Shown: positions 10,605 through 64,000, counted from the stretch's first letter. The stretch is DNA of 64,000 bases from Bongovirus reindeer (IMGVR_UViG_2974717242_000001:18357-82356), one strand, 5' to 3'. Notes: generated from the letters alone by a model not told the origin. Numbers and translations are program-made.

Positions 10605-10925
10605 GTGGTTGATGTAGCGATGGTGGCCACCGTGGTCGGCGCTTTGGCGACTGGCGGTGTGCTCACTGCGGTGTGGAATTCGGTGTTCCCTCCGCGTCGT
10701 GACCGGACTTCTGAGGCTGAGGCGATCCAGCAGTTGGGTGCTGATATTCGCCGGGAGATCCGTGAGGAGAACGAGGCGTTGCGCCTGCGCATGGATGTGG
10801 TCGTGAACGCGGTGATCAGCCTGACCGATCTGCTGGACGACTTGTTCCCGAAGATCACTGGACTGTCCGAGGAAGAGCGAATTGCTCTGCGGCACAAGAT
10901 TAATCTCGCCAAGCGGGCGACGTGA
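10605..10925 (+). CDS. membrane protein (N-terminal TM helix)
   Basis: GTG start. Hydrophobic N-terminus VAMVATVVGALATGGVLTAVW followed by a charged coiled segment. Confidence 0.5.
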   Translation: MVDVAMVATVVGALATGGVLTAVWNSVFPPRRDRTSEAEAIQQLGADIRREIREENEALRLRMDVVVNAVISLTDLLDDLFPKITGLSEEERIALRHKINLAKRAT

Positions 10926-10947
10926 CGTACAATTGAGAGAGGACTAG

Positions 10948-11946
10948 ATGGCTAGTTTTACGCCTATCGTCCCCGTTCGTAGCAACCGGCCTCTTGAGCT
11001 GCAGCGCGGCAACCCACTGCGCTATCGCTACACCCTCCCTGGCAACAAGACGTTCCCTGTGGGCACGTCGGCTGTTCTGACGGTGTCGAACACCTATGGG
11101 CAGGTTGTGGGCGGCTTCATTGGGACTGTCGCGGGCAAGACGATTGAGTTCGTTGAGGGCACCGACATTTCCGACATGTTGGCCCGCACGGACACGTGGA
11201 CTTTGTCTGTGACGTATCCCGGCGAGACGATGCCGACGATGCTGGAGCAGGGCCAGATCATCCGCATTGAGGCTCCGTTCCCCGATGCTCCTGCGCAGTC
11301 TCCGGAGTTCGAGGGTGTGGCGTACGAGTACCACTTCGGCACTCCTGGCTTCGTGAAGGATCCGGCGTGGCGGATCATGAATGGTCATCCGCGCGTGTAC
11401 GACAACTCGTTCCGGAATCTGCCGAACGCGGTGTCGAGTGGTTCGCTGTTTGGTGGTGACCTGACTGCGTTCGATGACGTGTGCATGGTGTGGTTCGCGC
11501 CGCTGCGGACTGACATTGTTCGGTTGACGTACAACACGATTCGTCCGATTGACAATTCGAACGGCGAAGTGTGGGCGATGATCTGCTCGAACTACGACGC
11601 CACGAACTGGGCTGGCTTCCACCACAAGCAGGTGTTCGGTGTGGGCTCGTGGGACGCCGACCAGATCTCTGTCGTGACCGGCTCGGGCCCAACCACTTTC
11701 GTGACTCGCGCCACGCAGTCGTATGACACTGTGAACAACCAGGCGTACACCGCCGAGTACAACCCCATCAGCAACACCTATTCGCTGTACGTGGGTACTT
11801 CCCACGATCCGTTGATCTCGTGGACGGACGAGACGAACGTGGTGAACCACGGCGAGGGTGAGCGCTATGTCGGCTTCGGCTTCAAGTCGGCCCTTCTGTA
11901 TGCGGGTGTGCAGGTTTCGGACTGGTACATCGCCAATACCCCGTAA
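10948..11946 (+). CDS. minor tail protein
   Basis: 332 aa, RBS GAGAGAGGA, last gene before lysis cassette. Confidence 0.6.
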   Translation: MASFTPIVPVRSNRPLELQRGNPLRYRYTLPGNKTFPVGTSAVLTVSNTYGQVVGGFIGTVAGKTIEFVEGTDISDMLARTDTWTLSVTYPGETMPTMLEQGQIIRIEAPFPDAPAQSPEFEGVAYEYHFGTPGFVKDPAWRIMNGHPRVYDNSFRNLPNAVSSGSLFGGDLTAFDDVCMVWFAPLRTDIVRLTYNTIRPIDNSNGEVWAMICSNYDATNWAGFHHKQVFGVGSWDADQISVVTGSGPTTFVTRATQSYDTVNNQAYTAEYNPISNTYSLYVGTSHDPLISWTDETNVVNHGEGERYVGFGFKSALLYAGVQVSDWYIANTP

Positions 11947-19636: not shown

Positions 19637-20103
19637 TTTCAGAATGGGTATCTCTTTAGAGAAGGAAGTATCTAATAAAATCCCACCACGTCCCCCGGCT
19701 GGGGGACGCTGCTCACGTACCGTAGGGGGTAGTCGCAACACATCCGTGTTGCTCCGGTCGCGCTCACTGCGTTCGCACTGTCCTTTTATGACCTTAGCGG
19801 GGCTCTGACCTGCGATTACAGGAAGCCGCGCACGCGACCTGCGGTTTTGCACGACTCGGCAAGCTGCAACCAGGAAAACTCTCAGAAAATTCTCAGAATC
19901 AAGCTGGGAGTTTGTGGGATTACAGGGAGCCGCTACACTAGACTCTGCGTGGGCTCGCGAGAGGTTGGTATTCCCTTCCCCCTCAGCGAGCGCGGCACCG
20001 AAGCTCACGACTGGCCAGGTGCCCCTCCCCTGGGGGTCGTGTCCCAGGGGAGCCCAAGTCGATCTCCTGTAATCACCCTGAGCCCATTGCCACACTATGT
20101 GGC

Positions 20104-26230: not shown

Positions 26231-26633
26231 AAAACGCTGCAGGGCAATTGTTCTCGAACGATGCGGAGGGTTGTGTGAGAGGTGTGGACGCGGTGGACCC
26301 GTCACCATGCACCACCGGAAGAAACGAGGACAAGGTGGGCCCTGGGAACCCTGGAACATCGTCGCGCTGTGCGGACATGGAACAACTGGCTGCCATGGCT
26401 GGGTGGAAGCTAACCCCCTGGCAGCTCACGCTACTGGCTGGCATGTTCGACCGTGGGAAGACCCACGTGACATCCGCCCCGTCCCAATATGGGAGACGGG
26501 GCTTCGAGGCGGATCTGGTGATCCTGGACGAGGCTCTGACCAGCAAGAACGCTTCCTGTATTCACCCTCCGAGGCGTCTTATTCTGAGTACGTCGAAGTG
26601 AGCGATCACTGGTTTGACATTGACCCCGAATGA
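26223..26633 (+). CDS. HNH endonuclease
   Basis: CERCG ... MHHRKKRGQGGPWEPWNIVALCGHGTTGCHGW is a Cys-His HNH box. 136 aa. Confidence 0.6.
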   Translation: MNEKRCRAIVLERCGGLCERCGRGGPVTMHHRKKRGQGGPWEPWNIVALCGHGTTGCHGWVEANPLAAHATGWHVRPWEDPRDIRPVPIWETGLRGGSGDPGRGSDQQERFLYSPSEASYSEYVEVSDHWFDIDPE

Positions 26634-51328: not shown

Positions 51329-51531
51329 TGAGCCTCGGTCTGACAGAAGGAGAGTGGGCTGCCATCCGGCGCGAAGCCGCTGACAGCCCACCCTTGACCG
51401 AAGCTCAGGTCAACCGGATCTCAATTATCGCTGGGATTATGCCAGTGGATGTCGATGTTGTGGCCCAGCGGCAACTTGGAAGCGGCACGACCAGTGACGC
51501 CGACGTGCCGTACCACAATCTTGTCGCATAG
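51328..51531 (+). CDS. hypothetical protein (convergent with integrase)
   Basis: ATGA overlap, 67 aa. 3' end overlaps integrase 3' end on the opposite strand. Confidence 0.45.
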   Translation: MSLGLTEGEWAAIRREAADSPPLTEAQVNRISIIAGIMPVDVDVVAQRQLGSGTTSDADVPYHNLVA

Positions 51532-52890
51532 CTGCTGGATGATGGCCCGCTTGCGGTCCAGCGGCAGCTCCACCCAGACAGCCTCGATGTTGTCGTGACT
51601 CAGCAGCCCGTCGTACACCCGTGACTTGGTGAGGCGGGCTAGCTGCGTTTCGATCTGCTCAAGCTTGGTGTCGACCTTGTTGGTGGCTTCCTTCACCTGC
51701 GCCGGGGTGAGGGTGCCATCAGCGAGGGCGTCGGTGAAGGAAAGCTTGCGCATCCGCAGCGTCTCAGCCTCAGCGTGGAGCGCTTTGGCTTTTTCCGCGT
51801 CAGCCTGGGTGCCGACCACCCACTTCCGCTCTTCAAGCTTGGCGACAACCATGGCCTCGACATACTTGTCGACCTTGTGACGCATCCGTGTGACGCCATG
51901 GTGGCAGACGCCGAAGTTCCTGCACCGGTAAACCCGCCCGCCTGTGGCGTTGCTGCTGGCAGCCATCTTGAAGCCACAGTTACCGCAGCGCGCAATGCCT
52001 GAGAGCAGCGTTACGCGCACCCGTGGGCCGGTCGGGCCCTTGTTTTTGCGGTCAAGGATCGCTGAGACCGCTTCCCACGTCTCAACGTCCACGATGGGTT
52101 CCCAGTCACCTTTGCCGATGATCTCGCCCCTGAAGCTGTACAGGCCAGCGTATCGGGGGCTTCTGAGGATCTTGGCTACAGCGGTGTCGATGAAGACGTT
52201 TCCTCGCGGTGTCTTGAGCCCTAGCTCGTTCCACTTCTTCGCGATTGAGTACACCGTGCCACCGGCGAGGATGTCGTCGTAGGCTTCGCGGATCGCGGCG
52301 GCTTCTTCCGGCACGACGTGACGCTTCTTGGCCTGCTTGTCGTAGGTGTAGCCGAACGCGGGTGCGCCCAATGGTCGCCCGCTGGTGGCGATCTGTTCGT
52401 ATGCGCGCATCTGTCTGGCTGTCCTGACTTCACCTTCGTTCTCGGCAACTGCTGCCAAGATTTTAGCTGTCATGCGTCCCGCGTCGGTGGTGAGATCGAT
52501 CAGACCTGTTTGGCAGGTCTCGATGGGGATGCGTTTGCCGTTGCGGTTCACCCCCTCAATGAGGTCGATGAGGGGCAGAAGGTCGCGCATTTTGCGGTAC
52601 AGCCGGTCTGAGCGCCACGTGATGATGGCGTCGAGCAGGCCTTCGCGGATGTCGGCGCACATCTCTTCGTACGATTCGCGGCGCACGTTTTCCTTGACAG
52701 CACTGCGGTCGTTGTCGATGTAGAGGACTGGTTCCCAGCCGAGGCGTTCGCACAGGGCGACGCAGTCCTCTCGTTGCCGCTCGATGCCCAGCTCCTTGTC
52801 GGTGGACATGCGGAGGTAGATGGCAGCTCTCAGCCGGGGCGGTGCTTCGTGCCTTGGCGGACTTTCGAGGGTTGCTGTCATGGGTGTCAT
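51421..52890 (-). CDS. int: large serine recombinase (integrase)
   Basis: N-terminal resolvase domain AAIYLRMSTDKE with catalytic Ser, ~490 aa with recombinase and Cys-rich zinc domains. Start chosen at MTPMTATLES with AAGGAG RBS. Confidence 0.85.
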   Translation of the reverse strand: MTPMTATLESPPRHEAPPRLRAAIYLRMSTDKELGIERQREDCVALCERLGWEPVLYIDNDRSAVKENVRRESYEEMCADIREGLLDAIITWRSDRLYRKMRDLLPLIDLIEGVNRNGKRIPIETCQTGLIDLTTDAGRMTAKILAAVAENEGEVRTARQMRAYEQIATSGRPLGAPAFGYTYDKQAKKRHVVPEEAAAIREAYDDILAGGTVYSIAKKWNELGLKTPRGNVFIDTAVAKILRSPRYAGLYSFRGEIIGKGDWEPIVDVETWEAVSAILDRKNKGPTGPRVRVTLLSGIARCGNCGFKMAASSNATGGRVYRCRNFGVCHHGVTRMRHKVDKYVEAMVVAKLEERKWVVGTQADAEKAKALHAEAETLRMRKLSFTDALADGTLTPAQVKEATNKVDTKLEQIETQLARLTKSRVYDGLLSHDNIEAVWVELPLDRKRAIIQQLCDKIVVRHVGVTGRAASKLPLGHNIDIHWHNPSDN

Positions 52891-52961
52891 TCTACGATAT
52901 AACTCCTTGTGATTAAAGGGCACTCAAACTAGTTAGTTAGAAAAACTATGTATCTGGATAT
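52891..52961. other. AT-rich region immediately 5' of integrase: candidate attP
   Basis: Local GC far below the genome average. Canonical position of attP for serine integrases. Core not determinable from sequence alone. Confidence 0.35.
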
Positions 52962-53015
52962 AAAAAAGGGGAGGCCGGATGCAGCCCCTCGTCTGCACCC
53001 GGCCTCCCTCTTCTT
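52962..53015. terminator. bidirectional intrinsic terminator
   Basis: A6 - GGGGAGGCCGG / CCGGCCTCCC - T-rich. 10-bp GC stem. Confidence 0.65.
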
Positions 53016-53265
53016 AGCCCCCGAGGACGACTACACGCCGAGCATCGGACAGGTGGAAGCCACCGCACCGACACTCGTACACGCCCTGCGGGGTGCGGTT
53101 CTTCTTGGCTCGCTTGTTCTTGGCGAGGATGTCCATCGAGACGCGGTGTGCCTCGGCGGCTGTGGCGAATCTGGTCTTCCAGGGGTTGGGGCAGGTGGGC
53201 CTGTGGACCTGGTAGACGTGGGCGGGCATGGTGACGCGTGGGGCTTTCAGCAGCGCGAGTGCCAT
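53014..53265 (-). CDS. hypothetical protein (Cys-containing)
   Basis: 83 aa, TGATG coupling to upstream gene. Confidence 0.5.
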   Translation of the reverse strand: MALALLKAPRVTMPAHVYQVHRPTCPNPWKTRFATAAEAHRVSMDILAKNKRAKKNRTPQGVYECRCGGFHLSDARRVVVLGG

Positions 53266-53465
53266 CAGTGACCGCCTACCGTCTTGAGGTGGCCACCGAT
53301 GGCGATGATCAGATCTAGCTGCTGATCTGGGGTGAGGGCCACGCCGTCGCGGTCGGCCGGGTTCGCACCCTCAGGCGCGATCTCAATGACGACATCACGA
53401 CCTGCGGAGATGAGGTTGAGCCGGTCCCCGTACACGTCTACGCAGGTGTACAGGTCTCCGCTCAT
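53265..53465 (-). CDS. hypothetical protein
   Basis: 66 aa, ATGA overlap. Confidence 0.5.
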   Translation of the reverse strand: MSGDLYTCVDVYGDRLNLISAGRDVVIEIAPEGANPADRDGVALTPDQQLDLIIAIGGHLKTVGGH

Positions 53466-53986
53466 GCAGCCACCTCACCCTTGAGGGCCTTCACCTGCGC
53501 CTTGGGCTTTGCTGGTGCCCGCTTGCGTGCGGGGCGCACAGCTGCCGCAGCTTCCCTTCGTGCCCGCTTGCCGATGGTCAGAGCGAGCAGCGCGATGGTG
53601 GAGAACGCCACGGACAGGTCCACGACGAGTGGCCACAGCCAGGCCACCCACACGCTCATGCCGCCTTGCTGCACTGCCAGCTCGAACAGTGACACGAAGG
53701 ACAGCACCAGGGCCACGACCGCGATTGCTGCGGTGAGGCCGAGGGCCACCCTGAAGAACATGCCGTCGATTTGGGTGCGGACCATGAGACTGAGCCCGTG
53801 TGTGGCGAGAGCCAGTACGACGGGCGGCACGAGGGCCATGCATGCCGCCACCCACGCGTTGTTGTTGTGGCTGTTGAACAGTGCGTGGGCGACGTTGCCG
53901 ACGATAGAGACGACGCTGGATCCGATGAGCCAGCGCCAGTAGAACGTGACTGCTTCTTTCTTGTACGCCGCGAGTGTGGTGGACAA
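53462..53986 (-). CDS. integral membrane protein (4-5 TM)
   Basis: 174 aa, multiple hydrophobic helices, basic C-terminal tail. TTG start after GAAGGGAA. Confidence 0.55.
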   Translation of the reverse strand: MSTTLAAYKKEAVTFYWRWLIGSSVVSIVGNVAHALFNSHNNNAWVAACMALVPPVVLALATHGLSLMVRTQIDGMFFRVALGLTAAIAVVALVLSFVSLFELAVQQGGMSVWVAWLWPLVVDLSVAFSTIALLALTIGKRARREAAAAVRPARKRAPAKPKAQVKALKGEVAA

Positions 53987-54012
53987 TGTGTGTTATTCCC
54001 TTCTGTCGTGTT

Positions 54013-54243
54013 TTAGATGGTCAGGTACTGCGTGATGTGGGGGACGCGCTCAATGGCTGCTGTCGCAGCCATGTAGTTGCCCTCGGCGCACTTCTTGGCC
54101 GCCGTGCGGATGAGCGACACAGCCATCTCGAGTTTGTGGATGTGGTCGATGGCCTCGATGTGCGACGAAACCAACTCTCGCTCAACAACAGTCAGCAGCG
54201 GAGCGTTGTCCTGAATGGTGAGCAGTTCCCGCTTGGTGATCAC
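54013..54243 (-). CDS. hypothetical protein
   Basis: GTG start after AAGAAGGGAA, 76 aa. Confidence 0.5.
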   Translation of the reverse strand: MITKRELLTIQDNAPLLTVVERELVSSHIEAIDHIHKLEMAVSLIRTAAKKCAEGNYMAATAAIERVPHITQYLTI

Positions 54244-54347
54244 AGATTGGTTCCCTTCTTGACCGGACGGAATGCCTCGTAACCGATGTAGGCGAGGTAG
54301 ATGCCCCAGATGGCCAGCGCTAGGAACTGGCCGAGTGTGAGCTGCAT
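54240..54347 (-). CDS. tiny membrane peptide (35 aa)
   Basis: RBS GAGAAGGGAAAAC-ATG. MQLTLGQFLALAIWGIYLAYIGYEAFRPVKKGTNL. GTGA overlap with downstream gene. Confidence 0.4.
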   Translation of the reverse strand: MQLTLGQFLALAIWGIYLAYIGYEAFRPVKKGTNL

Positions 54348-54430
54348 GTTTTCCCTTCTCGTGAATTTGCCGTGAATGTAGGCCTGTCCTGTATTTGCAG
54401 GTCAGCCCATGTTTTGGCCCAGAAAGCCAG

Positions 54431-54460
54431 AAGGCCCCCCGACATGAGCCGGGGGGCCTT
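54431..54460. terminator. intrinsic terminator hairpin
   Basis: AAGGCCCCCCG-acatgag-CGGGGGGCCTT. Perfect 11-bp stem. Confidence 0.6.
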
Positions 54461-54475
54461 CCTACCTACTGGGAA

Positions 54476-55000
54476 CTAGGTGGGGTTCTTCAGGTAATCG
54501 ATCCATTTGATGCAGCTGCGGCGCACCTTCTGCCGCATCTGCTCGGGGGTGCGCTTCAAGCAGTGACTACACATGCGGTAACCGCGTCCCTGTACCTCGC
54601 CGACAGTGAGCGCCGAGAGGTGAACGAGCGGCCGCACTGGTGTGCGCAGCGTGATGGTTCGGCAGAACGCCGTGGTGTGCACAGCGCCCGAGGGGACGCG
54701 GACGTACAGGTTGAACTCGCCGCCGCGCAGCCAGGCCCGTTCAGCATTGCTGAGCATGTCGGCTAGGCGTTGCCCTCGGGGCCTCATCGCGTCGGCACGC
54801 TCACGTTGCCCACGCTGCAGGTAGTTGGTGTACTGTTTGCGGAAATCGCGGATCTCATCGAAAAGCGCAATTAACTCCGATGCTACTTCTATCAACTCCT
54901 CTTCGCTCATGGTGTGTCGGACTTGTGCATGTGGCAACCACCCTCCCTTTTTGGCCGTTGCTAGCTTGAACCTGGGGGGTGATTTTACTTGTGCCGTCAT
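54476..55000 (-). CDS. hypothetical protein in isolated transcription unit
   Basis: 174 aa. RBS GAAGGGAA at start, terminator hairpins on both sides (54431-54460 and 55073-55106), stoperator-like site 54387-54405 just downstream. C-terminal CSHC. Confidence 0.55.
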   Translation of the reverse strand: MTAQVKSPPRFKLATAKKGGWLPHAQVRHTMSEEELIEVASELIALFDEIRDFRKQYTNYLQRGQRERADAMRPRGQRLADMLSNAERAWLRGGEFNLYVRVPSGAVHTTAFCRTITLRTPVRPLVHLSALTVGEVQGRGYRMCSHCLKRTPEQMRQKVRRSCIKWIDYLKNPT

Positions 55001-55072
55001 GATTCCCTTCGAGCCTTCCAGCAGGTCCGTGACTCCTGCCTAGACCGTTGTACGTTGCTAAACACAGCAGAA

Positions 55073-55106
55073 GGGCACCGGATCGGGCTGACCCGGTGCC
55101 CTTCCT
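55073..55106. terminator. intrinsic terminator hairpin
   Basis: AAGGGCACCGG ... CCGGTGCCCTT. Confidence 0.5.
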
Positions 55107-55112
55107 CCCTAT

Positions 55113-55361
55113 TCAGTGCACGTCGACCTGTTGATCGTGGTAGCCCATGCGGTGCAATAGTTCATCGACACTGCCCTGTAGGTTGCTGCGGGCGAATGTG
55201 GCGAAGTCGGCTCGGGCTTCGCTGGCGTTGTCAAGCCCGAAGTCAATGGCCCACGCAGCAAGGTCCATCCCCGTGATGGTGACGGTGAATGTGAGCTGGT
55301 CGTCATCGTTCACGTGGCAGACGTGTTCCTGCCCGCAGTGTGGGCATGTGGTCTTGGCCAT
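55113..55361 (-). CDS. small Cys/His-rich protein
   Basis: RBS GGAGGG. MAKTTCPHCGQEHVCH, 82 aa. Confidence 0.5.
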   Translation of the reverse strand: MAKTTCPHCGQEHVCHVNDDDQLTFTVTITGMDLAAWAIDFGLDNASEARADFATFARSNLQGSVDELLHRMGYHDQQVDVH

Positions 55362-55364
55362 GTG

Positions 55365-55598
55365 TCAGACCCTCCCGGCTCGCATGCTGCTGGCGACGAT
55401 GTCGAGCACGTCGTCCCGGCTGAGCCCCAGGTCGGCATTGAGCTGGTCAACCGTCTCCTCCGCCTCACCCAGGGTGCGGTGCAGGCCGAACACGGGGGTC
55501 CAGCCAGCCTCGTCCTCGACCACCTTGGCGATCTCGTACCCCTGCTGGGCTCGGTTGAAGTACGACTCGTTCGCGTAGTAGCACGTCCTCTTGTCCAT
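55365..55598 (-). CDS. hypothetical protein
   Basis: RBS GAGAAGGGGAAACC-ATG. Track ORF extended to 55643. Confidence 0.5.
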   Translation of the reverse strand: MDKRTCYYANESYFNRAQQGYEIAKVVEDEAGWTPVFGLHRTLGEAEETVDQLNADLGLSRDDVLDIVASSMRAGRV

Positions 55599-55676
55599 GG
55601 TTTCCCCTTCTCTTGTGTAGCTCTGAATTGAGCAGGGGCGCAACGGATCCAGTGACCCGTTGAACCCCCTCCCGAT

Positions 55677-55859
55677 TCAGCGAATTCTACTCACACATTC
55701 CGGTGGGTAGCCCATGCGCTTGAACTCCGCTTGCGCGGCCTCGAGGACGACGGTTTTGATGTCGTCCCGCGCCGACCGTGGACCTGCCAGGTTGTAGCTG
55801 TCCGCGTACTCCCACAGGTCGAGGTCGACGGCCAGGTTGACCACTACCCGGCCATGCAT
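55677..55859 (-). CDS. hypothetical protein
   Basis: 60 aa from ATG 55859. Confidence 0.4.
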   Translation of the reverse strand: MHGRVVVNLAVDLDLWEYADSYNLAGPRSARDDIKTVVLEAAQAEFKRMGYPPECVSRIR

Positions 55860-55864
55860 AGGCC

Positions 55865-56140
55865 TCACCGGCCCCGCTGAATGAGGATGGTGCCCGACTT
55901 CAGCCCGTCGACCAGCTCGGCCACCTTGAACCAGTGCTCAAAGGTGGCTGAGACGCGCACCCACTTGTCGCGGAAGTCGCCCGTGCCCCAGTGGGCGAAC
56001 CCTGGGCCCTGGCCCTCCGTGAAGGTGCGCAGCACACCGACGAACTCGGAGCCACCGCGTTCAATGTGGATGAGGTAACCCTTCTCGACGGCGTCCATCA
56101 GTTCACCCATGACCTTCACGTCTGCGAGCGTTGTGTCCAT
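55865..56140 (-). CDS. hypothetical protein
   Basis: RBS GAGAAGGGAATAGAGAT-ATG. Track ORF extended to 56212. Confidence 0.5.
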   Translation of the reverse strand: MDTTLADVKVMGELMDAVEKGYLIHIERGGSEFVGVLRTFTEGQGPGFAHWGTGDFRDKWVRVSATFEHWFKVAELVDGLKSGTILIQRGR

Positions 56141-56237
56141 ATCTCTATTCCCTTCTCGTGTGTTTGCAGCTGAATACAGCAGGGGCGCAGCAGATCTCGC
56201 GACCTGCTGCACCCCCTCCCCATTCAGTTGTCAGTGC

Positions 56238-56520
56238 TCACGCGCGTCCACGCGCATCCTCCTCGGCCTCATCAGCGGCCCGACCACTCGCGTAGTACGC
56301 CATCCAGTCGGTCAGGTCACGCACAAGATCCGGCACCTTCTGGGCGAGAATCTCGATGGGCTCGCCAACGTTCTGGGGCCTCCCGCGCTCGATGATTCGG
56401 CCATTGTCAGCCACACGCTCAACGGTGAGCGTGCGCTGAATGATCAGCCGGTCGAGTCGACCCCCGACCGTCCTCCTCTGGTTCCACGTTGTATGCGGTG
56501 ATCTTCCGGTCGAACGCCAT
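56238..56520 (-). pseudogene. frameshifted small gene (G5 homopolymer)
   Basis: ATG 56520 with canonical leader RBS. Frame stops after 33 aa. The +1 frame is open for 62 further protein-like aa. Removing one G from run 56461-56465 restores a 95-aa ORF. Confidence 0.4.
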
Positions 56521-56610
56521 GTTCTTCATTCCCTTCTGTCGTGTTGTGGTGCTGAGTACACCAAAGGGGGCACCGACCAATGCCGATGTCCCCGAGTTGC
56601 GCTCAGAACC

Positions 56611-56679
56611 CTAGAACTGTTTGAACAGCAGGATGATGGTCGCCAGCACTACAGCCAGTGACCAGTAAGCAGCCGTCAT
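56611..56679 (-). CDS. tiny hydrophobic peptide (22 aa)
   Basis: RBS GAAGGAGGG, ATGA overlap with upstream gene stop. MTAAYWSLAVVLATIILLFKQF. Confidence 0.3.
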   Translation of the reverse strand: MTAAYWSLAVVLATIILLFKQF

Positions 56680-57029
56680 ACAGCCCTCCTTCGTTCCCAG
56701 CCGCGCCGCGCCCACTGCGTTTGAGACCACTTGTTGCGCATGATGGTCTCGGCCATGCGTTGCAGCTGGCTCGGGTTCGCGTAGTACTCCTGAGAGTTCA
56801 ACGCGTCAGCGAGACCCGCGTGATAGCCACGGTTGTGGTCCACCACGTCGAACCCCATGCCGTCAGCCGTGAATGGGATGCCCTCCCAGTCCGGTGGCCA
56901 CATGATGACCGTCTCCCAGTAGTCGAACGACCCACCGAGGTACGCGGTGGACACTTGGACCACGCCGACCCCGTCAATGACGAAGCCTTGCATGACTTGA
57001 CGGTTCGGCCGAAACATGGTGTCACTCAT
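56676..57029 (-). CDS. hypothetical protein
   Basis: Start at MSDTMF with leader RBS. Track ORF extended to 57137. Confidence 0.5.
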   Translation of the reverse strand: MSDTMFRPNRQVMQGFVIDGVGVVQVSTAYLGGSFDYWETVIMWPPDWEGIPFTADGMGFDVVDHNRGYHAGLADALNSQEYYANPSQLQRMAETIMRNKWSQTQWARRGWERRRAV

Positions 57030-57126
57030 CAGTTTCTCTTCCCTTCTCGTGTTGGTGTCCGTCTGGCCACCAAGGAAAGGCACCACAGGTTGCCCTGTGA
57101 TGCCCTCCCCAAGCTGCCAGCCAGCT

Positions 57127-58200
57127 TTATGCCGCAACCAGCTGCGGCATGTCGAGCACCTCGCTCAGGGCCCGCAGCGTGGCCCCGTCGCTCGCCGCGA
57201 TGTCGTTGCGGATGGCACGGTCGTAGACACGTTCCAGCCGCGACGTTCCGCGCACCGAGCGTCCGTGATGCTCGTAGGTGTTGACCGCCTGCACGACACC
57301 GAAAGCGGTGCCCGCGAACGGTGCCGACATGGGATCCACCGTGTAATAGTGGTCGAGCGCCTCACGGCGATTCTCGGCCTTGGTGATCTTGGCCTTGCTG
57401 CTGTCGGCGGGTGCGGGCGGCTCGATGATGTCGAGCACCTTCAGCCACTGCTTGCGGCTCACCTCGATCTGTGCCAGCTCGCGGGTGAAGTCCTGCATCT
57501 CGTGCGCGGACTTGTCCAGGATCGACAGTGCCTCACGGACACCTGCCACCACCTGGGCCCCCATGCTGTTGACGGTGTGCTTGACCTTGTACTGACGGCC
57601 TGCCGCCTTGGCGTCACGCCGGATGACCTGAAACATGTTGTCGCAGATCAACATCCGATTGAACGCCGAATACGTCGTCGAGATCGAGCCGTCGAGCGAC
57701 GTTTGGGCGAGCAGGAACGGCCAAAACTTGAGGCCGGTCTTCTCGTCGTGCATGGTCTCGTCAAGACCGATCTCGACTGCCGCCTGTGCGCCGTTCTTCA
57801 GCGTCAGTGCGGACAGGATCGAAAGCCGGTCCTGCAGAATGTTGCTCACGTTCCGGATGAGCCACTCCTTGTAGTCGTGGATCCGGTAGGACTTCGTGTG
57901 CCGCCCCAACTCCGTGTAGTCATCGGAGCGCACAATTCCCTGTGCGCCCTCGGTGATGACCACACGGGCCGGTCGCCCATCGGGCAGGACAATCACACCC
58001 GGCTCGCCGAGCTGGTCGACGCCGACCGGGACGAAATTGCCCGTGGGCACACTGATGGCCTCCCAGTTGAACAGGCGGCGCTCCACCTCAGCGACAGGGA
58101 TGGGGCCCTCGTAGGTCGGCAGGGTGCCGTCCGTCTGGCCGATCCACCGGTCGCGCTTGGCGGTGTTGCCGATCAATGCGTGAGCGATCTTGGTTCCCAT
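57127..58200 (-). CDS. hypothetical protein (357 aa, largest gene of leftward block)
   Basis: Leader RBS CACGAAGAAGGGAAGAGAACTA-ATG. No recognisable catalytic motif. Confidence 0.6.
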   Translation of the reverse strand: MGTKIAHALIGNTAKRDRWIGQTDGTLPTYEGPIPVAEVERRLFNWEAISVPTGNFVPVGVDQLGEPGVIVLPDGRPARVVITEGAQGIVRSDDYTELGRHTKSYRIHDYKEWLIRNVSNILQDRLSILSALTLKNGAQAAVEIGLDETMHDEKTGLKFWPFLLAQTSLDGSISTTYSAFNRMLICDNMFQVIRRDAKAAGRQYKVKHTVNSMGAQVVAGVREALSILDKSAHEMQDFTRELAQIEVSRKQWLKVLDIIEPPAPADSSKAKITKAENRREALDHYYTVDPMSAPFAGTAFGVVQAVNTYEHHGRSVRGTSRLERVYDRAIRNDIAASDGATLRALSEVLDMPQLVAA

Positions 58201-58316
58201 TAGTTCTCTTCCCTTCTTCGTGTGTTACCCGTTTGTGTAACGGGCATCTGTACCGTCTGAGTACAGCAGAGCGCACAGGGTGATTACAGGGAACCAACCT
58301 GTGCGCTCCTCCCTAC

Positions 58317-58724
58317 TCAGATGTAGGCCTTACCATCCGGCGCGAGATCCACCAGGGCAGCGGTGTGCACAGGTGCACCCGTGTAGCCCAGCGTGAAAGT
58401 CCCTGCCTGATAAGGGTTATAGCGGGCTTGAGTGCCAGGCAGTACGTGAGTGATGCGCGGGTCATTGATGTCGACCAGCGTGCCCACCACACCCGCGTGC
58501 ACACTCTTGCGCCGCGTGCGGATCACCTTTTGGCGACCACCCTCGCGGACCACGAACTTGGCGTCAATGATCACTGCGCCTGTGGCGTGAGCAACCACCT
58601 TGCCTTTGTTTTCACCGTCCCGTGCCACGATGGACCACTGGTCACGGTGCAGGTTGCGGTATGCGAATACCGTTTGCCCGAACTCGATGCCCCGGCCCTG
58701 GTACGGCTCAATGGTGTAAGACAT
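58317..58724 (-). CDS. hypothetical protein
   Basis: Leader GGAGAAGGGAAAACATC-ATG, 135 aa. Confidence 0.55.
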   Translation of the reverse strand: MSYTIEPYQGRGIEFGQTVFAYRNLHRDQWSIVARDGENKGKVVAHATGAVIIDAKFVVREGGRQKVIRTRRKSVHAGVVGTLVDINDPRITHVLPGTQARYNPYQAGTFTLGYTGAPVHTAALVDLAPDGKAYI

Positions 58725-58822
58725 GATGTTTTCCCTTCTCCGTGTGTTGGTGCTGAGAACACCAGCAGGACAACAGGTCTGGCGAACTGTTGCCCTGAGT
58801 CGCTCTCAGTACGTGTGAACTG

Positions 58823-58950
58823 TCAGAGTTCACCGCCCTTGCGCAGCTTCTGACGGATGGCGCGGCGGTCGGCTCGCTTGAGCTTCTTGCGGTCACCCAA
58901 GCGACGCTCGCCGTGGACCCCGAGCATGCGGCCATGGTTGGAAACGTACA
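58823..58950 (-). CDS. small basic protein (42 aa)
   Basis: Leader AGAGAAGGGATTACAGAT-ATG. MYVSNHGRMLGVHGERRLGDRKKLKRADRRAIRQKLRKGGEL. Below track cutoff. Confidence 0.4.
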
Positions 58951-59045
58951 TATCTGTAATCCCTTCTCTGTGTGTGTATTTCACTGTCTACAGACAGCAG
59001 AGAGCCCACCGACCGTGTGGCCGATGGGCTCTCCTCCGTGTGTAG

Positions 59046-59291
59046 CTAGCTGAGCTTGAAGCTGAGCGTTTGAATCCGCGTGTAACCGCCACGCGACTGC
59101 ATGCGCGGTATCACAACGGTGTTCTCTGTGTACGTGGATTTGGAGTAGTCGCGGTATGTCAGCTCGACCTCGCGACCGGCTATCTGGCAGTCCTGTACCT
59201 CGACCACGCGGCCGTTGTGCACGATCCAGTCGCCTAATCCCAGATCAGACACGGGTGATTCAACCCAGTTGACAATCTTGATCTCAGCCAT
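59046..59291 (-). CDS. hypothetical protein
   Basis: Leader CAGAGAAGGGATAGAACC-ATG, 81 aa. Confidence 0.55.
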   Translation of the reverse strand: MAEIKIVNWVESPVSDLGLGDWIVHNGRVVEVQDCQIAGREVELTYRDYSKSTYTENTVVIPRMQSRGGYTRIQTLSFKLS

Positions 59292-59311
59292 GGTTCTATC
59301 CCTTCTCTGAG

Positions 59312-59464
59312 TCAGCGGAGCTGGCTGATTGCTGCCTTGACATCGCCCAAATCCCAGGCGATTTGTTCATACAGCGGCGTGCCGTCAGTTGCCCTGGCGA
59401 GCTGCCGCTCAAGGTCACTCTCCCACTGGTACAGCTCGCCCAGTGTCATTCCATCGACATGCAT
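59312..59464 (-). CDS. hypothetical protein
   Basis: Leader CACGGAGAAGGGAACAGAGCC-ATG. Track ORF extended to 59512. Confidence 0.45.
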   Translation of the reverse strand: MHVDGMTLGELYQWESDLERQLARATDGTPLYEQIAWDLGDVKAAISQLR

Positions 59465-59540
59465 GGCTCTGTTCCCTTCTCCGTGTGTTGGTCTGAGTTG
59501 ACCAGCGCACACACTGTCACCAGTGTGTGCCCCTACCGAC

Positions 59541-59762
59541 TCAGATCTGAGAAACGATCCTGTAGGTCACTTTCACATGACCATGTGCCATCGTGGCTGT
59601 GAACTCGCGGTCAGATTCGTGCCATTCCACGCGCCATCCACCGTCCGTGTACATCCGGGCAATCCGTGCCAAATTGCGTAGCGCGGCTGAAAGAGTCGAG
59701 ACCCACGGGCCCACCTCGTTACGGTCGGGCGTAGGGCCTTCTCTATCAATCCGGTATGCCAT
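59541..59762 (-). CDS. hypothetical protein
   Basis: Leader CACGGAGAAGGGATAGAGAA-ATG. Track ORF extended to 59840. Confidence 0.5.
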   Translation of the reverse strand: MAYRIDREGPTPDRNEVGPWVSTLSAALRNLARIARMYTDGGWRVEWHESDREFTATMAHGHVKVTYRIVSQI

Positions 59763-59845
59763 TTCTCTATCCCTTCTCCGTGTGTGTTTGCTGCCTAAGC
59801 AGACAAGCGGCAGCACTAGATGCCTAGTGCTGCCTCCCAATCGGC

Positions 59846-60568
59846 TTAGACGACCGCCAAGGGCAAGAAATTCTTGGCCCCAACGCCGTGTACCTCAATC
59901 GAGATCGATGCCTTGCGGCCATTGCCATTGCCGCCGCACTGCATGCACGTGATGCACTGCACCGTGTTGTTTTTGCCCGCCGTGGCAGGGCACTGCACCA
60001 AACCCTTGGGTTTGGGTGCACCCTGCGGACGGACAACAAACCCGCGCCATCCCGCGCGGCGCGCCGCCCGGTAATCCTCGAGCGTGTCGCACGATGCCAT
60101 GCAGAACTCTGCAAGACCCGTGTCGCAAGCACGCCATTGGTGCGTGTAGCCAAGGACACCGTCGGCGATGCTGGCAATGGTTGCCCAGATGTGCGTAGGC
60201 ACCGCTCCAGGGTCGCCGTAGGCACCAAACCGCACCTTGCGACCAATGAACGCGTCAGCGTCGAACGGACGGACATTGCCACGCTTGAATGCGCCCCACA
60301 CCGCATTGGGTGTACGCATGTTGACGTAGCAAGACCGCTTGCGACCATTCGCACGGTCGCCTCGATGAACGCAACCACCGCACACGGCAGCATCGCTACC
60401 GTCCGCAATGGCATCGCTCGGCTTGACATCCGCACGAAGGATCCACGTTTGCACCACGTCGCCGGTCTTGACGTTTGCGGACTTGAATGAAGCCAGCACC
60501 ACAATCGGAGTGACCCCATCGAGAGCCGATACGCCCTGCCAGACAACCATGGTCTGATCTTTCGACAT
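59846..60568 (-). CDS. hypothetical Cys-rich protein (240 aa)
   Basis: Leader CACGGAGAAGGGAAAAGGGAAC-ATG. Multiple CxxC motifs (CGGC, CPATAGKNNTVQCITCMQCGG). Confidence 0.55.
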   Translation of the reverse strand: MSKDQTMVVWQGVSALDGVTPIVVLASFKSANVKTGDVVQTWILRADVKPSDAIADGSDAAVCGGCVHRGDRANGRKRSCYVNMRTPNAVWGAFKRGNVRPFDADAFIGRKVRFGAYGDPGAVPTHIWATIASIADGVLGYTHQWRACDTGLAEFCMASCDTLEDYRAARRAGWRGFVVRPQGAPKPKGLVQCPATAGKNNTVQCITCMQCGGNGNGRKASISIEVHGVGAKNFLPLAVV

Positions 60569-60660
60569 GTTCCCTTTTCCCTTCTCCGTGTGTGTGCCGC
60601 CTGAGAGCAGCAGAAAGCACACCTACCGAGCGGTAGATGTGCTTTCCTCCGTGCTCAGGA

Positions 60661-60885
60661 CTAGGCGCTTGCCAACATGGCGCGTTCTTTCACCTTGCCC
60701 ACCCAACCCGCGTGGCCGATAGCAGCCAGCGTGGGGGAGCTGTAGTGCTCCCATTGTGTTTCTTGACCAGGCCAAAACACGCAAGTCTCGTAGTAGCCAA
60801 ACTGCGCGATATGGACGGTAGAAACATGCACGCGGACACCATTAACTTTGATTTTGTCGCTGGCGACCACCTTGGGGTTACGCAT
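60661..60885 (-). CDS. hypothetical protein
   Basis: Leader CACGGAGAAGGGAAAACATC-ATG. Track ORF extended to 60936. Confidence 0.5.
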   Translation of the reverse strand: MRNPKVVASDKIKVNGVRVHVSTVHIAQFGYYETCVFWPGQETQWEHYSSPTLAAIGHAGWVGKVKERAMLASA

Positions 60886-60964
60886 GATGTTTTCCCTTCT
60901 CCGTGTGTTGTGGTCTGAGTTGACCAGCGCATGCACTGAAAACTCAGCGCATGCCCCTACCTAC

Positions 60965-61246
60965 TCAGCCCATTGCCGCAAGTTCCGCTAGTGACCCTGT
61001 GTCTCGCACCGCAATTCGCTTGCCGGTCTCGAGAAGGATGTTTCCGCAATCCTCAGCGCACGCGTAGCCAGCATTTTCGGCTTCTCGTGTCTGAAGAACC
61101 CAAATGTCCAGATGTGGCAAACGTTCTTTGATAGCGCCAGCTTTCGCCATCGCGCTATGCCAATCGGTTGCCAAGTCCTGGGCACGCTTGAAGTGATTAG
61201 CGCGCCGATTGCGGTAGGCAATCGTCCAATAGGTTGCGTCTCTCAT
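60965..61246 (-). CDS. hypothetical protein
   Basis: Leader CACGGAGAAGGGAACCACC-ATG, 93 aa. Confidence 0.55.
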   Translation of the reverse strand: MRDATYWTIAYRNRRANHFKRAQDLATDWHSAMAKAGAIKERLPHLDIWVLQTREAENAGYACAEDCGNILLETGKRIAVRDTGSLAELAAMG

Positions 61247-61340
61247 GGTGGTTCCCTTCTCCGTGTGTACCGCTGCTAGATACAGCAGAGACTACTTAGC
61301 TCTGCTATATAACCGGCAGAGTAAGTAATCTCCTCCCCAT

Positions 61341-61598
61341 CTAGTCGCCGTTAATGCGCTTGTCCCAGATATTGAATGACTCCATTGCCGCCCGACGTGC
61401 CTCAGATTCTGCGACTTCGGGCCGGTCGCGGAAGTACTTGCGACCATCTGTCATGAGTGCTGGGCCAGCGTCGCCGATCATGTAGACAGCCCACCGATAC
61501 GTATCCGCGTGGACGCCGTGACCTTGCGTGCTGTAGGGCAGGACTGTTGCGTAAACGTTGCCGTTGCGCAGGATCTCGCCCTCTACTGCATTCGTCAT
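61341..61598 (-). CDS. hypothetical protein
   Basis: Leader CACGGAGAAGGGATAGAACC-ATG. Track ORF extended to 61667. Confidence 0.5.
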   Translation of the reverse strand: MTNAVEGEILRNGNVYATVLPYSTQGHGVHADTYRWAVYMIGDAGPALMTDGRKYFRDRPEVAESEARRAAMESFNIWDKRINGD

Positions 61599-61677
61599 GG
61601 TTCTATCCCTTCTCCGTGTGTGGTCTGAATTGACCAGGGCATGCACTGACCATTTGCCAGCGCACACCCCTACCTAT

Positions 61678-61905
61678 TCAGTCCTGCGCATAGACCCGGT
61701 AAAGCGTTCGGATCTCGCCATCCTTGATTGACGCTGTGAGCACATAGCCGGTGATCTCGGTAGACCATCCGCCTGCCTCGTAGGTATCGGCTATCAGCCG
61801 CAGCTGACGCATTGCGCCATGCTCGGAGAGATTCCGGTAGACCGTTCTGCCGTCAATCGCAAACTCGCTACCGTCCTGCTTATGGTGCGTGATCTCAAAT
61901 AGCAT
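61678..61905 (-). CDS. hypothetical protein
   Basis: Leader CACGGAGAAGGGAACACGC-ATG, 75 aa. Confidence 0.55.
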   Translation of the reverse strand: MLFEITHHKQDGSEFAIDGRTVYRNLSEHGAMRQLRLIADTYEAGGWSTEITGYVLTASIKDGEIRTLYRVYAQD

Positions 61906-61990
61906 GCGTGTTCCCTTCTCCGTGTGTGTGTCCTGCTAGGCAGCAGGTAGCCACACATAGACCTCGAGGCCTATGTGTGACTGTCCGTGC

Positions 61991-62212
61991 CTAGTCGACT
62001 GTCTCCAGAACGTCGGCAGTGCCAATCTCAATCGAGCCGCACGCCGCGCAACCCCAGTAGCCGCCGAGATCGACCGTGCCAGCGCTTGCCAGCAATCCAG
62101 CCGACTCGACAAACGCCGAGATACACGCCAGCTCAGATTCATCATCAAAAGCCGAGTAGTCGGCGTTGACGATGGCCGTTGCACACGTGTGGCAGACGTT
62201 GAAAACCTTCAT
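61991..62212 (-). CDS. small Cys-rich protein (first gene of leftward operon)
   Basis: RBS GAAGGGAAG. CHTC ... CAAC pairs. 73 aa. Confidence 0.5.
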   Translation of the reverse strand: MKVFNVCHTCATAIVNADYSAFDDESELACISAFVESAGLLASAGTVDLGGYWGCAACGSIEIGTADVLETVD

Positions 62213-62292
62213 TGATTCTTCCCTTCAGTGCAGGTGGGACCATGCGCCCTCACTCTTCAGACGACCGGTACCAGACCGGTCGCCAGAAGAAT

Positions 62293-62334
62293 GGCCTGAA
62301 GCGACGTTAATCGAGATTAATTCCGCTTCAGGCC
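62293..62334. other. strong hairpin upstream of leftward operon
   Basis: 11-bp perfect stem GGCCTGAAGCG / CGCTTCAGGCC enclosing palindromic loop TTAATCGAGATTAA. Confidence 0.4.
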
Positions 62335-62996
62335 ACCCAAATCACACTTGGAAGATTCAGGAGAAGAAGAGAGTGAACCTCAGTACGCAATGTCTCACCC
62401 GACTCACTCACGCCGTACGAGGTACGTGAGGCTAGCGGCGCATTGCCCTATGCCATGCCTTGGTATTCCGAGAACACTGCAGCCGCCTGCCGCCGTGCCT
62501 CGATACTCCTCCGGTCCTGCTGTATCACGCGACTCGCATTGTCCGCGCGAGTGACCAGGTTCCGATCCAAGGAGGTTCATCAACACTATGGAGTTCTCAA
62601 GCAACGTTTAAGGACACGCCGCAACCGACGTCCGTCCCGCACGCCCGTAGGCCATGCGATTAGCGGGTACTACTCCTTTCTGAAGGCAGTGTTGTAGAAG
62701 GCGCTCCGCCCCTCCCTCGCGGGCTGGGCAGTGCGTCGAACAAGGAGAACATTACGTTTGAACGGCCAGCAACGCAATAGGGGAAGTTAGTTTCCGGACA
62801 CCCAAACTGGGGTCTAAACGTGCCATGAGCTGCGGAAACTCGTCCAAAAAAAAACTTGAAATTGGGCCGGGTCCAGGCTGATTTCCGCTATCCAGCAAAC
62901 ATACCTCTGACCTGCGGTTTTAGGTAAAAGCCCAGGTCAAAGGACATACATAGGTTATCTATATTGGACAAGTGTCCAGCTAACGCCAAAACATGG

Positions 62997-63089
62997 TTTG
63001 ACCTGCAGAAAACTTTTTTCAGCAACATAGTTAACTATGTGGGACACAAGCCCGAAATGGCCCCAAAACTCACCCCGTTTGACCTGCAG
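62997..63089 (+). repeat. direct repeats TTTGACCTGCAG (two copies) plus related CTGACCTGCGG at 62907
   Basis: Identical 12-mers at 62997-63008 and 63078-63089. Share the TGACCTGC half of the genome-wide stoperator-like motif. Confidence 0.5.
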
Positions 63090-63734
63090 ATATGCCACAT
63101 AAGGCCTGGTAGAGAGTTTGACAGGACAAACCCCAGAAATCGGCCGAAAGTTAGCTAGCAAACCTCGAAAATCGACATATTCACGAATCGAGATGTATGC
63201 ATAAGCCCAGGTAAACGCAGAATCGAGGGTCGAAACACGGAGTACAGCTGCCCCGAGAGCGTCGAAAATCGGCCCGTTTTCGAGGGGTCTGTAAACCTCG
63301 TTTGTGCTGGTAGGAGGCCATAGCAAACAGAGGGTTTCGAGGCATGCCGTAGGCCTCGAGTAGGTGACTTAGGTTAGGCAACCCTCAGTAGAGGGACTGT
63401 CTACCAGGACAACGTCACGTGTATGTGGGCCGATTCAACGAGAGCGCCCATTGCTGCCCTCTAGCGTCCACGCAGACGGACGAACTAGGTAAGTCCGGAT
63501 AGAACGCTTGGGTGAGGCCATCCCGATCGCTCACAGCGGCTCTCAGGCCTCGATAGGGAACGGGGCCCGGGTAAATACACCATTCCCTCCCCTCCTGTCA
63601 ACCACTACGTGACAAGCGCTGCATCACAGCACGTGAGGGTTGACAGCAAGCACCAGCATGTGGTACACGCGAGACCAGGTAGCAAACCATAGTTAGCACA
63701 CCTAACCCTGACTCCAGTCAGTACAGCTACCAGG

Positions 63735-63860
63735 AACACACACACCAAACACCAAGCACACACCACATATGCAGGAACACACCCATGTGACCAGCACCAA
63801 CACACCACACACTCCACACCACACCAACCCACACCAACACCAGCAACCACCAAACCGGAG
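63735..63860. repeat. CA/ACC-rich low-complexity microsatellite-like tract
   Basis: About 125 bp composed almost only of C and A (CACACACC, CCAACAC, ACCACAC units) in a 64% GC genome. Confidence 0.6.
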
Positions 63861-64000
63861 TTAGCTACAGCAAACCCGCAAACCAGCTAAAACATGCTCT
63901 GACCAGCGGAAACGTCGAGGCCGGCAAGTGAAATAGCTAACTCCCGAGGATAGCCTGGGGGACACCCCCTGAGCCGGGGACGGCCGGACACCTCGTGCAA

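Follow-up and report, generated by a model that had tools for sequence, protein, structure and literature searches.

The 64,000-nucleotide stretch of Bongovirus reindeer analysed here (the window) matches the 82,356-bp genome of Mycobacterium phage Reindeer (NC_053516.1; Cluster M, genus Bongovirus) at 100% identity. Record coordinates are obtained by adding 18356 to the window coordinates used throughout, and the end of the window is the right end of the genome. As a first-pass annotation of this DNA had stated, about 25 leftward genes lie at 53014–62212; these are genes 134–158, all on the minus strand and annotated throughout as 'hypothetical' or 'membrane' proteins. They are flanked by the serine integrase gp133 (51421–52923) and by a 1.5-kb non-coding stretch. 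We describe the repeated junction that stands between many of these genes and that consists of a hairpin near the stop codon of the upstream gene and a leader with the motif ACGGAGAAGGGA close to the start codon of the next.

We found eight exact copies of ACGGAGAAGGGA, on the minus (gene) strand only, at 58732, 59473, 59770, 60578, 60893, 61253, 61606 and 61912, so that the positions reported earlier were accurate to ∼5 nt. With up to two mismatches allowed, 16 copies were present against 4.8 expected, and this number was reached in none of 100 shuffles. Three near-identical 20–25-mers said to be shared between leaders were also recovered, at 59490, 60912 and 61622, where none is expected. 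A table of every gene start, combined with the covariance-model search described below, placed the full hairpin-plus-motif junction at 16 of the 25 genes (157, 156, 155, 154, 153, 152, 151, 149, 148, 147, 146, 145, 143, 141, 139 and 138). Genes 150, 136 and 137 have a GAAGGGA-type ribosome site without the full junction. The leader of the first gene, 158 (62210–62322), has GAAGGGA (62220–62226) and an ATG behind a different long hairpin (ΔG −48.7) and lacks the ACACAC extension described below. Neither element was found at genes 134, 135, 140, 142 and 144, each of which overlaps or abuts its neighbour. The original observation, that a leader of this kind precedes almost every gene, was thus partly confirmed: a common repeated leader is real and highly non-random, but its frequency was overstated. 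The 16-mer ACACACGGAGAAGGGA is invariant, bar one substitution, in nine promoter-proximal units only (58.7–62 kb), and the distal units have a looser, one-base-shorter variant, ACACGAGAAGGGAA.

Each leader was folded from the upstream stop codon, positioned from the annotated coordinates, to the start codon. This gave one composite hairpin of ∼23 bp in three tiers. In the basal stem UGAGU, UGAAU or UAGAU pairs with ACUCA, AUUCA or AUCUA, and its 5′ strand is very often the stop codon plus two bases. An internal loop leads from there to a middle stem of 2–3 bp with conserved G-U pairs, and past another loop stands a perfect upper stem of 10–17 bp, the sequence of which differs between units. 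A CTG-N-CAG hairpin or, alternatively, a longer palindrome had been proposed at this place; a hairpin is indeed present, but the two are parts of one composite and not alternatives, and the supposed CTG-N-CAG loop, AYUCA, is actually the basal-stem partner of the upstream stop-codon region, UGARU. The fold energies of 16 units ranged from −29.5 to −61.7 kcal/mol, with z-scores of −1.7 to −6.7 (−2.7 or lower in 14 of them).

In a hand-picked alignment of 12 units, 88.6% of the cells were paired, against 33–43% with slid partners, and both sides had changed at 17 of the 22 pairs; the observed values were reached by none of 500 shuffles. A covariance model was built from this alignment and used to search the right arms of seven Cluster M phages at a cut-off of E<0.01. 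It returned 100 units, each on the gene strand, so that the leaders, which had been taken for a common cis-acting element, are indeed kept in the relatives, being present in all seven genomes. Sixteen matches fell in the window, all inside 54407–61993, and the rest of the 82-kb Reindeer genome had none. Among 94 distinct units, 92.3% of the cells were paired (38–44% in slid controls), compensatory changes were seen at 22 of 22 pairs, and G-U was conserved at two stem positions. Rfam gave no family at its gathering threshold for the hairpin, the best hits (18–26 bits versus 39–82) all being generic hairpin matches.

We also compared the two strands. The sense strand outfolds the antisense strand in 79 of 88 leaders (−40.9 versus −32.8 kcal/mol), and the stems contain 317 G-U cells versus 19 A-C cells. 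Because the sense strand folds better and G-U far exceeds A-C, the element appears to have been selected as a structure of the sense mRNA and not as a DNA palindrome; in these folding models, selection of the junction hairpin as RNA in the mRNA sense is well supported.

Strong GC-rich hairpins that directly follow stop codons, accompanied by a motif that is best conserved promoter-proximally, might be U-less partial intrinsic terminators or attenuators grading transcription along the operon, and the existence of U-less terminators in mycobacteria has been suggested (as mentioned in PMC3993855). However, 71 of 83 hairpins have only 0–1 T within the next 8 nt, and termination by mycobacterial RNA polymerase in vitro depends on a U-tract (PMC3993855). 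The phage has a canonical intrinsic terminator, with a 16-bp hairpin and T6 (52969–53008, within 52960–53008 on the minus strand), after gp134 at the real end of the leftward operon and only there. Moreover, sixteen serial terminators, even modestly efficient ones, would silence the distal genes. From the lack of a U-tract after the sense-strand hairpin, we infer that it does not terminate transcription, and the attenuators or terminators suggested at first pass are disfavoured and, in our judgement, quite unlikely.

Past the hairpin, the leader continues with 7–25 nt of A/C-rich sequence (up to 60 nt at times), then GGAGAAGGGA and, after 3–11 nt, the start codon; the spacing from GAAGGGA to the start, also 3–11 nt, has its mode at 8. 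Within this segment, AGAAGGGA forms eight consecutive pairs, one of them G-U, with UCCUUUCU, which we take to be the 3′ terminal sequence of mycobacterial 16S rRNA. The predicted duplex with the 16S tail amounts to −10.0 kcal/mol for the junction genes (−9.2 to −10.9), whereas the median of 73 other genes of Reindeer is −7.3. GAAGGGA at the distance of a Shine-Dalgarno (SD) site also precedes unrelated genes elsewhere in the Reindeer genome. The 16S complementarity and the fixed distance to the start codon argue that the core of the motif is an SD site, an identity that the first-pass annotation had missed and that is well supported at the level of sequence.

The motif as a whole is predicted to be unpaired with a probability of 0.74, versus 0.30 for the remaining leader, and A and C make up 72% of the 12 nt past the hairpin. 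The motif keeps to the downstream start and the hairpin to the upstream stop, and the extra sequence of long gaps falls between them. Since hairpin-only and motif-only junctions both occur, the two are separable modules. Motif-only junctions, on the minus strand, include those of gp150 (59289–59314; a 20-nt gap with no hairpin and TCAGAGAAGGGA at 59299–59310) and gp136 (53984–54015; a 26-nt gap with no hairpin, ACACGACAGAAGGGAA and a TTG start).

The repeats are intergenic, gene-oriented and upstream of each start, as would be expected if every leader held an internal promoter and the genes were transcribed separately, and T4-type PeSLs pair a promoter with a stem-loop in a like position (PMC2839356). 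The internal promoters envisaged earlier were nevertheless disfavoured by the sequence of the region: 50–64 kb holds no sigma-70-like site, although 3.9 are expected, and the −10 element TANNNT is depleted, occurring in 10 of 88 leaders against 30.6 expected. Furthermore, no phage RNA polymerase is annotated in Reindeer, and the sole invariant sequence is the SD region, which lies 3–11 nt from the start codon. We hold this explanation to be extremely improbable.

The conserved ACACAC extension of the motif (ACACACGG) has no rRNA partner; it cannot pair there because the 16S rRNA ends at the AGAAGGGA pairing. ACACACGG may be further recognised by a protein or nuclease. Its invariance in nine units and the conservation of G-U at two fixed stem positions would fit a mechanism in which the motif, perhaps with the G-U lower stem, binds a dedicated phage or host protein that switches translation of the early operon in the manner of the Cluster K SAS, for which the same argument was made (PMC3203893). 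A Pfam search of ten right-arm proteins returned DUF932 (gp147), an L5 gp82-like domain (gp148) and DUF2637, but no RNA-binding domain among the ten that would mark a candidate, and the window yielded no complementary RNA. The looser variant, 1 nt shorter, is also tolerated in the distal half of the operon, and the conservation could instead be due to a recent duplication of the repeats or to gene conversion between them. A trans-acting factor of this kind is therefore possible but unlikely. A trans-acting antisense partner in the window, the GT-rich right-end tract included, was tried and rejected; the best non-self duplex (−29.8 kcal/mol) came from an unrelated terminator hairpin.

The position of the hairpin relative to the stop codon suggested another possibility, namely coupling operated by the ribosome: the hairpin would refold after termination and bring the stop to ∼10–20 nt from the next SD site for shunt-like reinitiation, or its freed pyrimidine arm would mask the SD site. 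Counted from the first base of the stop codon, the hairpin begins at a distance of 0–13 nt in 80 of 88 units; in 34 the distance is zero, the stop codon then being first to pair. A stop triplet opens ∼80% of units. The stop context covaries with its partner (UGAGU:ACUCA, UGAAU:AUUCA, UAGAU:AUCUA), and the 3′ arm, rich in pyrimidines, has partial complementarity to the SD site. On the other hand, the true stop is 2–18 nt upstream of the stem in many units, and the distance from hairpin to SD site varies from 7 to 60 nt. When 16 nt at the stop were masked, the predicted accessibility of the SD site fell only from 0.74 to 0.58, and on this small effect the 3′ arm was rejected as an anti-SD element released by a terminating ribosome. 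The small alternative hairpin (CTG-N-CAG) had a slight excess of pairs in a register-free test (4.84 bp versus 4.43 bp), but in fixed registers its covariation was no better than that of slid controls. Ribosome-operated coupling thus appears very unlikely. We consider decidedly unlikely, too, an active RNA device in which the terminating ribosome opens the basal helix, the helix refolds and, with a dedicated factor recognising ACACACGG and the G-U pairs, hand-off of the ribosome is made or gated. If real, such a device would represent phage-specific translational control repeated 16 times in one operon.

The explanation that we favour, with somewhat better than even confidence, is a two-part RNA junction in which a stop-anchored stabilising or processing hairpin is followed by an unstructured CA-rich leader with a uniform SD site, the whole marking the boundaries of gene cassettes. 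The identity of the translation site and the structure at the RNA level are its well-supported parts. The right-arm genes would then form one leftward polycistronic operon of small gene cassettes joined by such junctions. The hairpin would probably stabilise the transcript or be processed, protecting the 3′ end of the upstream cistron, and it is possibly a site for a double-strand-specific RNase, as are the intercistronic RNase III hairpins of T7 early mRNA. The structure-free ACACAC tract together with GGAGAAGGGA would provide all cassettes with a uniform ribosome-binding site that is accessible and of moderate strength. The C-rich single-stranded stretch past the hairpin could, in addition, be a suitable target of mycobacterial RNase E, an enzyme that cleaves single-stranded RNA on the 5′ side of C and has its sites enriched in intergenic regions (PMC6448022, PMC10641625). 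Because a C-rich single-stranded tract adjoins an irregular, internally looped duplex of ∼23 bp, the processing sites offered by the first-pass annotation are plausible. Being repeated, the junction would also serve as a breakpoint for gain, loss or swapping of cassettes between Cluster M phages.

Several points weigh against this explanation. The alignment of 94 units was fitted to the model and so leans toward the modelled structure. Units that are orthologous between related phages do not count as independent, and the effective sample is smaller than the 88–94 units suggest. The SD duplex, of moderate strength only, does not account for the invariance of ACACACGG over nine units. ACACAC fits the RNase E motif RN↓CNU at the +1 C only. 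Mosaic phages in general often have their breakpoints concentrated at gene boundaries, so that the enrichment seen here is weak evidence. Finally, no mapping of transcript ends, RNA-seq or reporter study of a Cluster M phage was found in the searchable literature; hence stabilisation, processing, translational enhancement and the role of ACACAC are what we infer from the arrangement of the elements.

If a portable junction of the type 'stop, stabilise, restart' does operate here, it would explain the even expression of long strings of unrelated small genes, and it would be a ready-made part for synthetic operons in mycobacteria.

The closest relatives of Reindeer are the Cluster M phages Bongo, PegLeg, Rey, MrMagoo, Nanosmite and others, and the identical motif and hairpin were found in Bongo and Rey. 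Among 50,697 phage records the junction unit was limited to 28, all of Cluster M. In IMG/VR, multi-copy matches were confined to Cluster M genomes, and the bacterial genomes among the matches listed had single chance copies only. The junction repeats coincide with the breakpoints of insertions, deletions and replacements between related phages, as in shuffling cassettes. When the Reindeer right arm was compared with six relatives by BLAST, 51 of 95 segment ends lay within leaders; the leaders cover 19% of the length.

The gene gp156 shares 96% and gp157 93% identity with their counterparts, genes 166 and 168 of Nanosmite, a Reyvirus, whereas their flanks are 75–82% identical (window 61340–61928 versus Nanosmite 10742–11870). 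Nanosmite has an extra gene between the two counterparts, and the two alignments overlap in Reindeer by 17 nt that lie exactly on the motif, which is what recombination between two motif copies would leave. The identity of gp156 and gp157, far above that of the flanks, indicates from sequence comparison that single-gene cassettes have recently been exchanged between subclusters.

The 16 full junctions, all on the minus strand, are arranged as follows. That of gp157 (61903–61993) has a hairpin at 61937–61993 that opens with the gp158 stop UAG (ΔG −36.6, z −4.2), the motif ACACACGGAGAAGGGA at 61912–61927 and an ATG at 61903–61905. In the gp156 junction (61596–61680; 84.8 bits, z −4.0), the hairpin (61626–61680) opens with the gp157 stop UGA and is followed by the motif at 61606–61621 and the ATG at 61596–61598. 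The hairpin of gp155 (61277–61343, in 61244–61343; z −3.5) opens with a UAG stop and has the UAGAU:AUCUA pairing; the motif is at 61253–61268 and the ATG at 61244–61246. For gp154 (60883–60967), a hairpin at 60916–60967 opening with UGA precedes the motif at 60893–60908. The junction of gp153 (60566–60663; z −4.2) comprises a hairpin at 60600–60659, the motif at 60578–60593 and the ATG at 60566–60568, and that of gp152 (59760–59848) an upper stem at 59809–59834, the motif at 59770–59785 and the ATG at 59760–59762. In gp151 (59462–59543; 84.5 bits), the hairpin (59494–59543) again opens with UGA, the motif occupying 59473–59488 and the ATG 59462–59464.

The gp149 junction (58949–59048; z −6.7) has its hairpin at 58988–59045, a motif with one mismatch, ACACACAGAGAAGGGA, at 58960–58975 and the ATG at 58949–58951. 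The L5 gp82-like gene gp148 (junction 58722–58825) is preceded by a hairpin at 58751–58812, the motif at 58732–58747 and the ATG at 58722–58724. Upstream of the DUF932 gene gp147 (58198–58319; z −5.4), the hairpin (58258–58319) opens with a UGA stop; an extra hairpin (58226–58246) intervenes before the motif variant ACACACGAAGAAGGGA at 58210–58225 and the ATG at 58198–58200. For gp146 (57027–57129; z −5.1), the hairpin is at 57059–57124 and the short motif ACACGAGAAGGGAA at ∼57040–57054.

The weakest unit (z −1.7) is that of gp145 (56518–56612), with a hairpin at 56548–56610 and the motif variant ACACGACAGAAGGGAA, in which GAAGGGA lies at 56530–56536. The junction of gp143 (56138–56240; z −5.7) has its hairpin at 56165–56233, the variant ACACACGAGAAGGGAA with GAAGGGA at 56149–56155 and the ATG at 56138–56140. 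In gp141 (55596–55679; 72.7 bits), a hairpin opening with UGA (55624–55679) is followed by a degenerate motif, ACACAAGAGAAGGGG, with GAAGGGG at 55604–55610 and the ATG at 55596–55598. At gp139 (54998–55115; z −4.5), the hairpin (55059–55115), which also opens with UGA, is followed by a second structure and by GAAGGGA at 55004–55010. Lastly, gp138 (54345–54478; z −5.5) has a hairpin at 54418–54473, a 60-nt spacer, CACGAGAAGGGAA, GAAGGGA at 54352–54358 and the ATG at 54345–54347.

The junction is of use in annotation, as it pinpoints true start codons, and four starts in Reindeer look mis-called. The annotated starts lie at 54910 in gp139, 56580 in gp145, 57086 (GTG) in gp146 and 60936 (GTG) in gp154, and the corresponding motif-linked ATGs at 54998–55000, 56518–56520, 57027–57029 and 60883–60885. 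The annotated starts of gp145, gp146 and gp154 are inside the junction hairpin and the motif-linked ATGs of all four genes stand at normal spacing, so that these four starts were probably mis-called. The motif-linked ATG at 56520 opens a frame of 33 codons only, which stops just before the GTG of gp144 (56238–56520, minus strand); gp145 and gp144 have the appearance of a single gene broken by a frameshift. A possible unannotated hydrophobic open reading frame of 22 codons, MTAAYWSLAVVLATIILLFKQF, lies on the minus strand at ∼56610–56678; it opens in an ATGA overlap with the gp146 stop and closes just before the next junction hairpin.

The units at 60893–60967 and 61606–61680 begin with UGARUAGGUAGG, which has stops in three frames (UGA, UAG and UAG) within its first 11 bases. 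A related unit at 59473–59543, UGAGUCGGUAG, has stops in two frames. Three-frame stops at a junction would end any incoming reading frame at the cassette boundary.

The 1.5-kb non-coding right end (62213–63701) holds a second repeat family, made up of minus-strand TTTCYGCWGGTCARASCATGTTTTRGC and shorter GCWGGTCARA copies (62812–62838, 62905–62917, 62985–63011, 63077–63090 and 63886–63912; also 19804–19813 and 26535–26544). Six copies were counted in the window against 0.67 expected, on the minus strand throughout, and one copy sits in the divergent gp51/gp52 intergenic region. This family may be the published CR1/CR2, perhaps operators or promoters. The non-coding segment 62583–62756 has 80–91% identity across all the Cluster M relatives examined, above that of the surrounding sequence, and matched nothing in Rfam; it could be a small RNA, or else a promoter or regulatory region. 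Close to the right end of the genome, minus-strand positions 63730–63860 form a very GT-rich, (GGTGTG)n-like tract that overlaps the 40-codon 'membrane protein' gp159, which is doubtful as a gene.

The junction described here matches a known system. The repeats CR3 and CR4, defined in Bongo and Rey, were reportedly first described by Pope et al. in 2014 (in J Virol 88:2461), and the abstract of that Cluster M paper is said to speak of new regulatory systems that act on transcription as well as translation, which would favour the trans-acting factor considered above. CR3/CR4 repeats accompanied by upstream stem-loops have been restated as a Cluster M feature for the phages Estes and Aziz, the inserted genes of which carry their own CR3 copies (PMC7953290). 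The phage cluster, the location, the orientation, the stem-loop upstream of the repeat and the inserted genes with a copy of their own are the same in both cases, and the elements occur in Bongo and Rey, the source genomes of CR3/CR4. We found no substantive difference, Reindeer being a later isolate. When the motif was searched for in full texts, unrelated primers were the only matches. From this agreement in cluster, location, orientation, stem-loop and presence in Bongo and Rey, we conclude that the junction is already known and is the published CR3/CR4-plus-stem-loop system, matched by description and not by consensus sequence.

Similar repeats occur in the Cluster K phages (SAS/ESAS; PMC3203893) and in Microbacterium Cluster EF (PMC7302621). 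There, too, an asymmetric repeat stands at the position of the ribosome-binding site, is over-conserved for an SD site with conserved positions unable to pair with 16S rRNA, and is found in unusually long intergenic gaps with an inverted repeat upstream. The sequence is different, GGGATAGGAGCCC or GGGAAAGGACCCC compared with ACACACGGAGAAGGGA here, and the SAS consensus GGGATAGGAGCCC was not matched. ESAS is a pair of 17-bp inverted repeats of conserved sequence, for which the authors found little support for an mRNA hairpin (PMC3203893); in Reindeer, by contrast, the stem sequence is free and the changes are compensatory. The SAS elements are also scattered genome-wide, whereas the Reindeer units are confined to one operon.

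In the T4-type PeSL cassettes (PMC2839356, PMC4122927), repeated composite intergenic motifs likewise stand on either side of small, variable early genes and provide the breakpoints at which gene modules are shuffled. They contain a promoter, whereas the Reindeer junctions have no promoter-like element and the ribosome site is their conserved part. The stoperators of Cluster A (PMC4351075, PMC3203893) are, like the junction motif, short asymmetric repeats along the direction of transcription, often intergenic; they are DNA sites for a repressor and are untied to starts, unlike the Reindeer motif with its distance of 3–11 nt from the start codon and its RNA-specific structure.

A further parallel is offered by phage T7. 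The T7 hairpins are, like those of Reindeer, repeated and irregular, with ∼20 bp or more and internal loops; they are intercistronic in one long early transcript, have no U-tract and are followed closely by the next ribosome site. In the T7 early genes, these intercistronic hairpins are the sites of RNase III, and after processing the hairpin reportedly remains with the upstream product, where it protects the 3′ end (Dunn and Studier). The Reindeer hairpins, by contrast, are putative processing sites; they come from a mycobacterial phage and have no sequence similarity to the T7 sites; nor are the T7 sites fused to an invariant SD leader, as the Reindeer hairpins are. Among the start-associated repeats of actinobacteriophages (Cluster K SAS/ESAS, Cluster EF and CR3/CR4), the Cluster M junction makes the cleanest test case, because one operon offers 16 copies with a well-supported RNA fold and an invariant leader.

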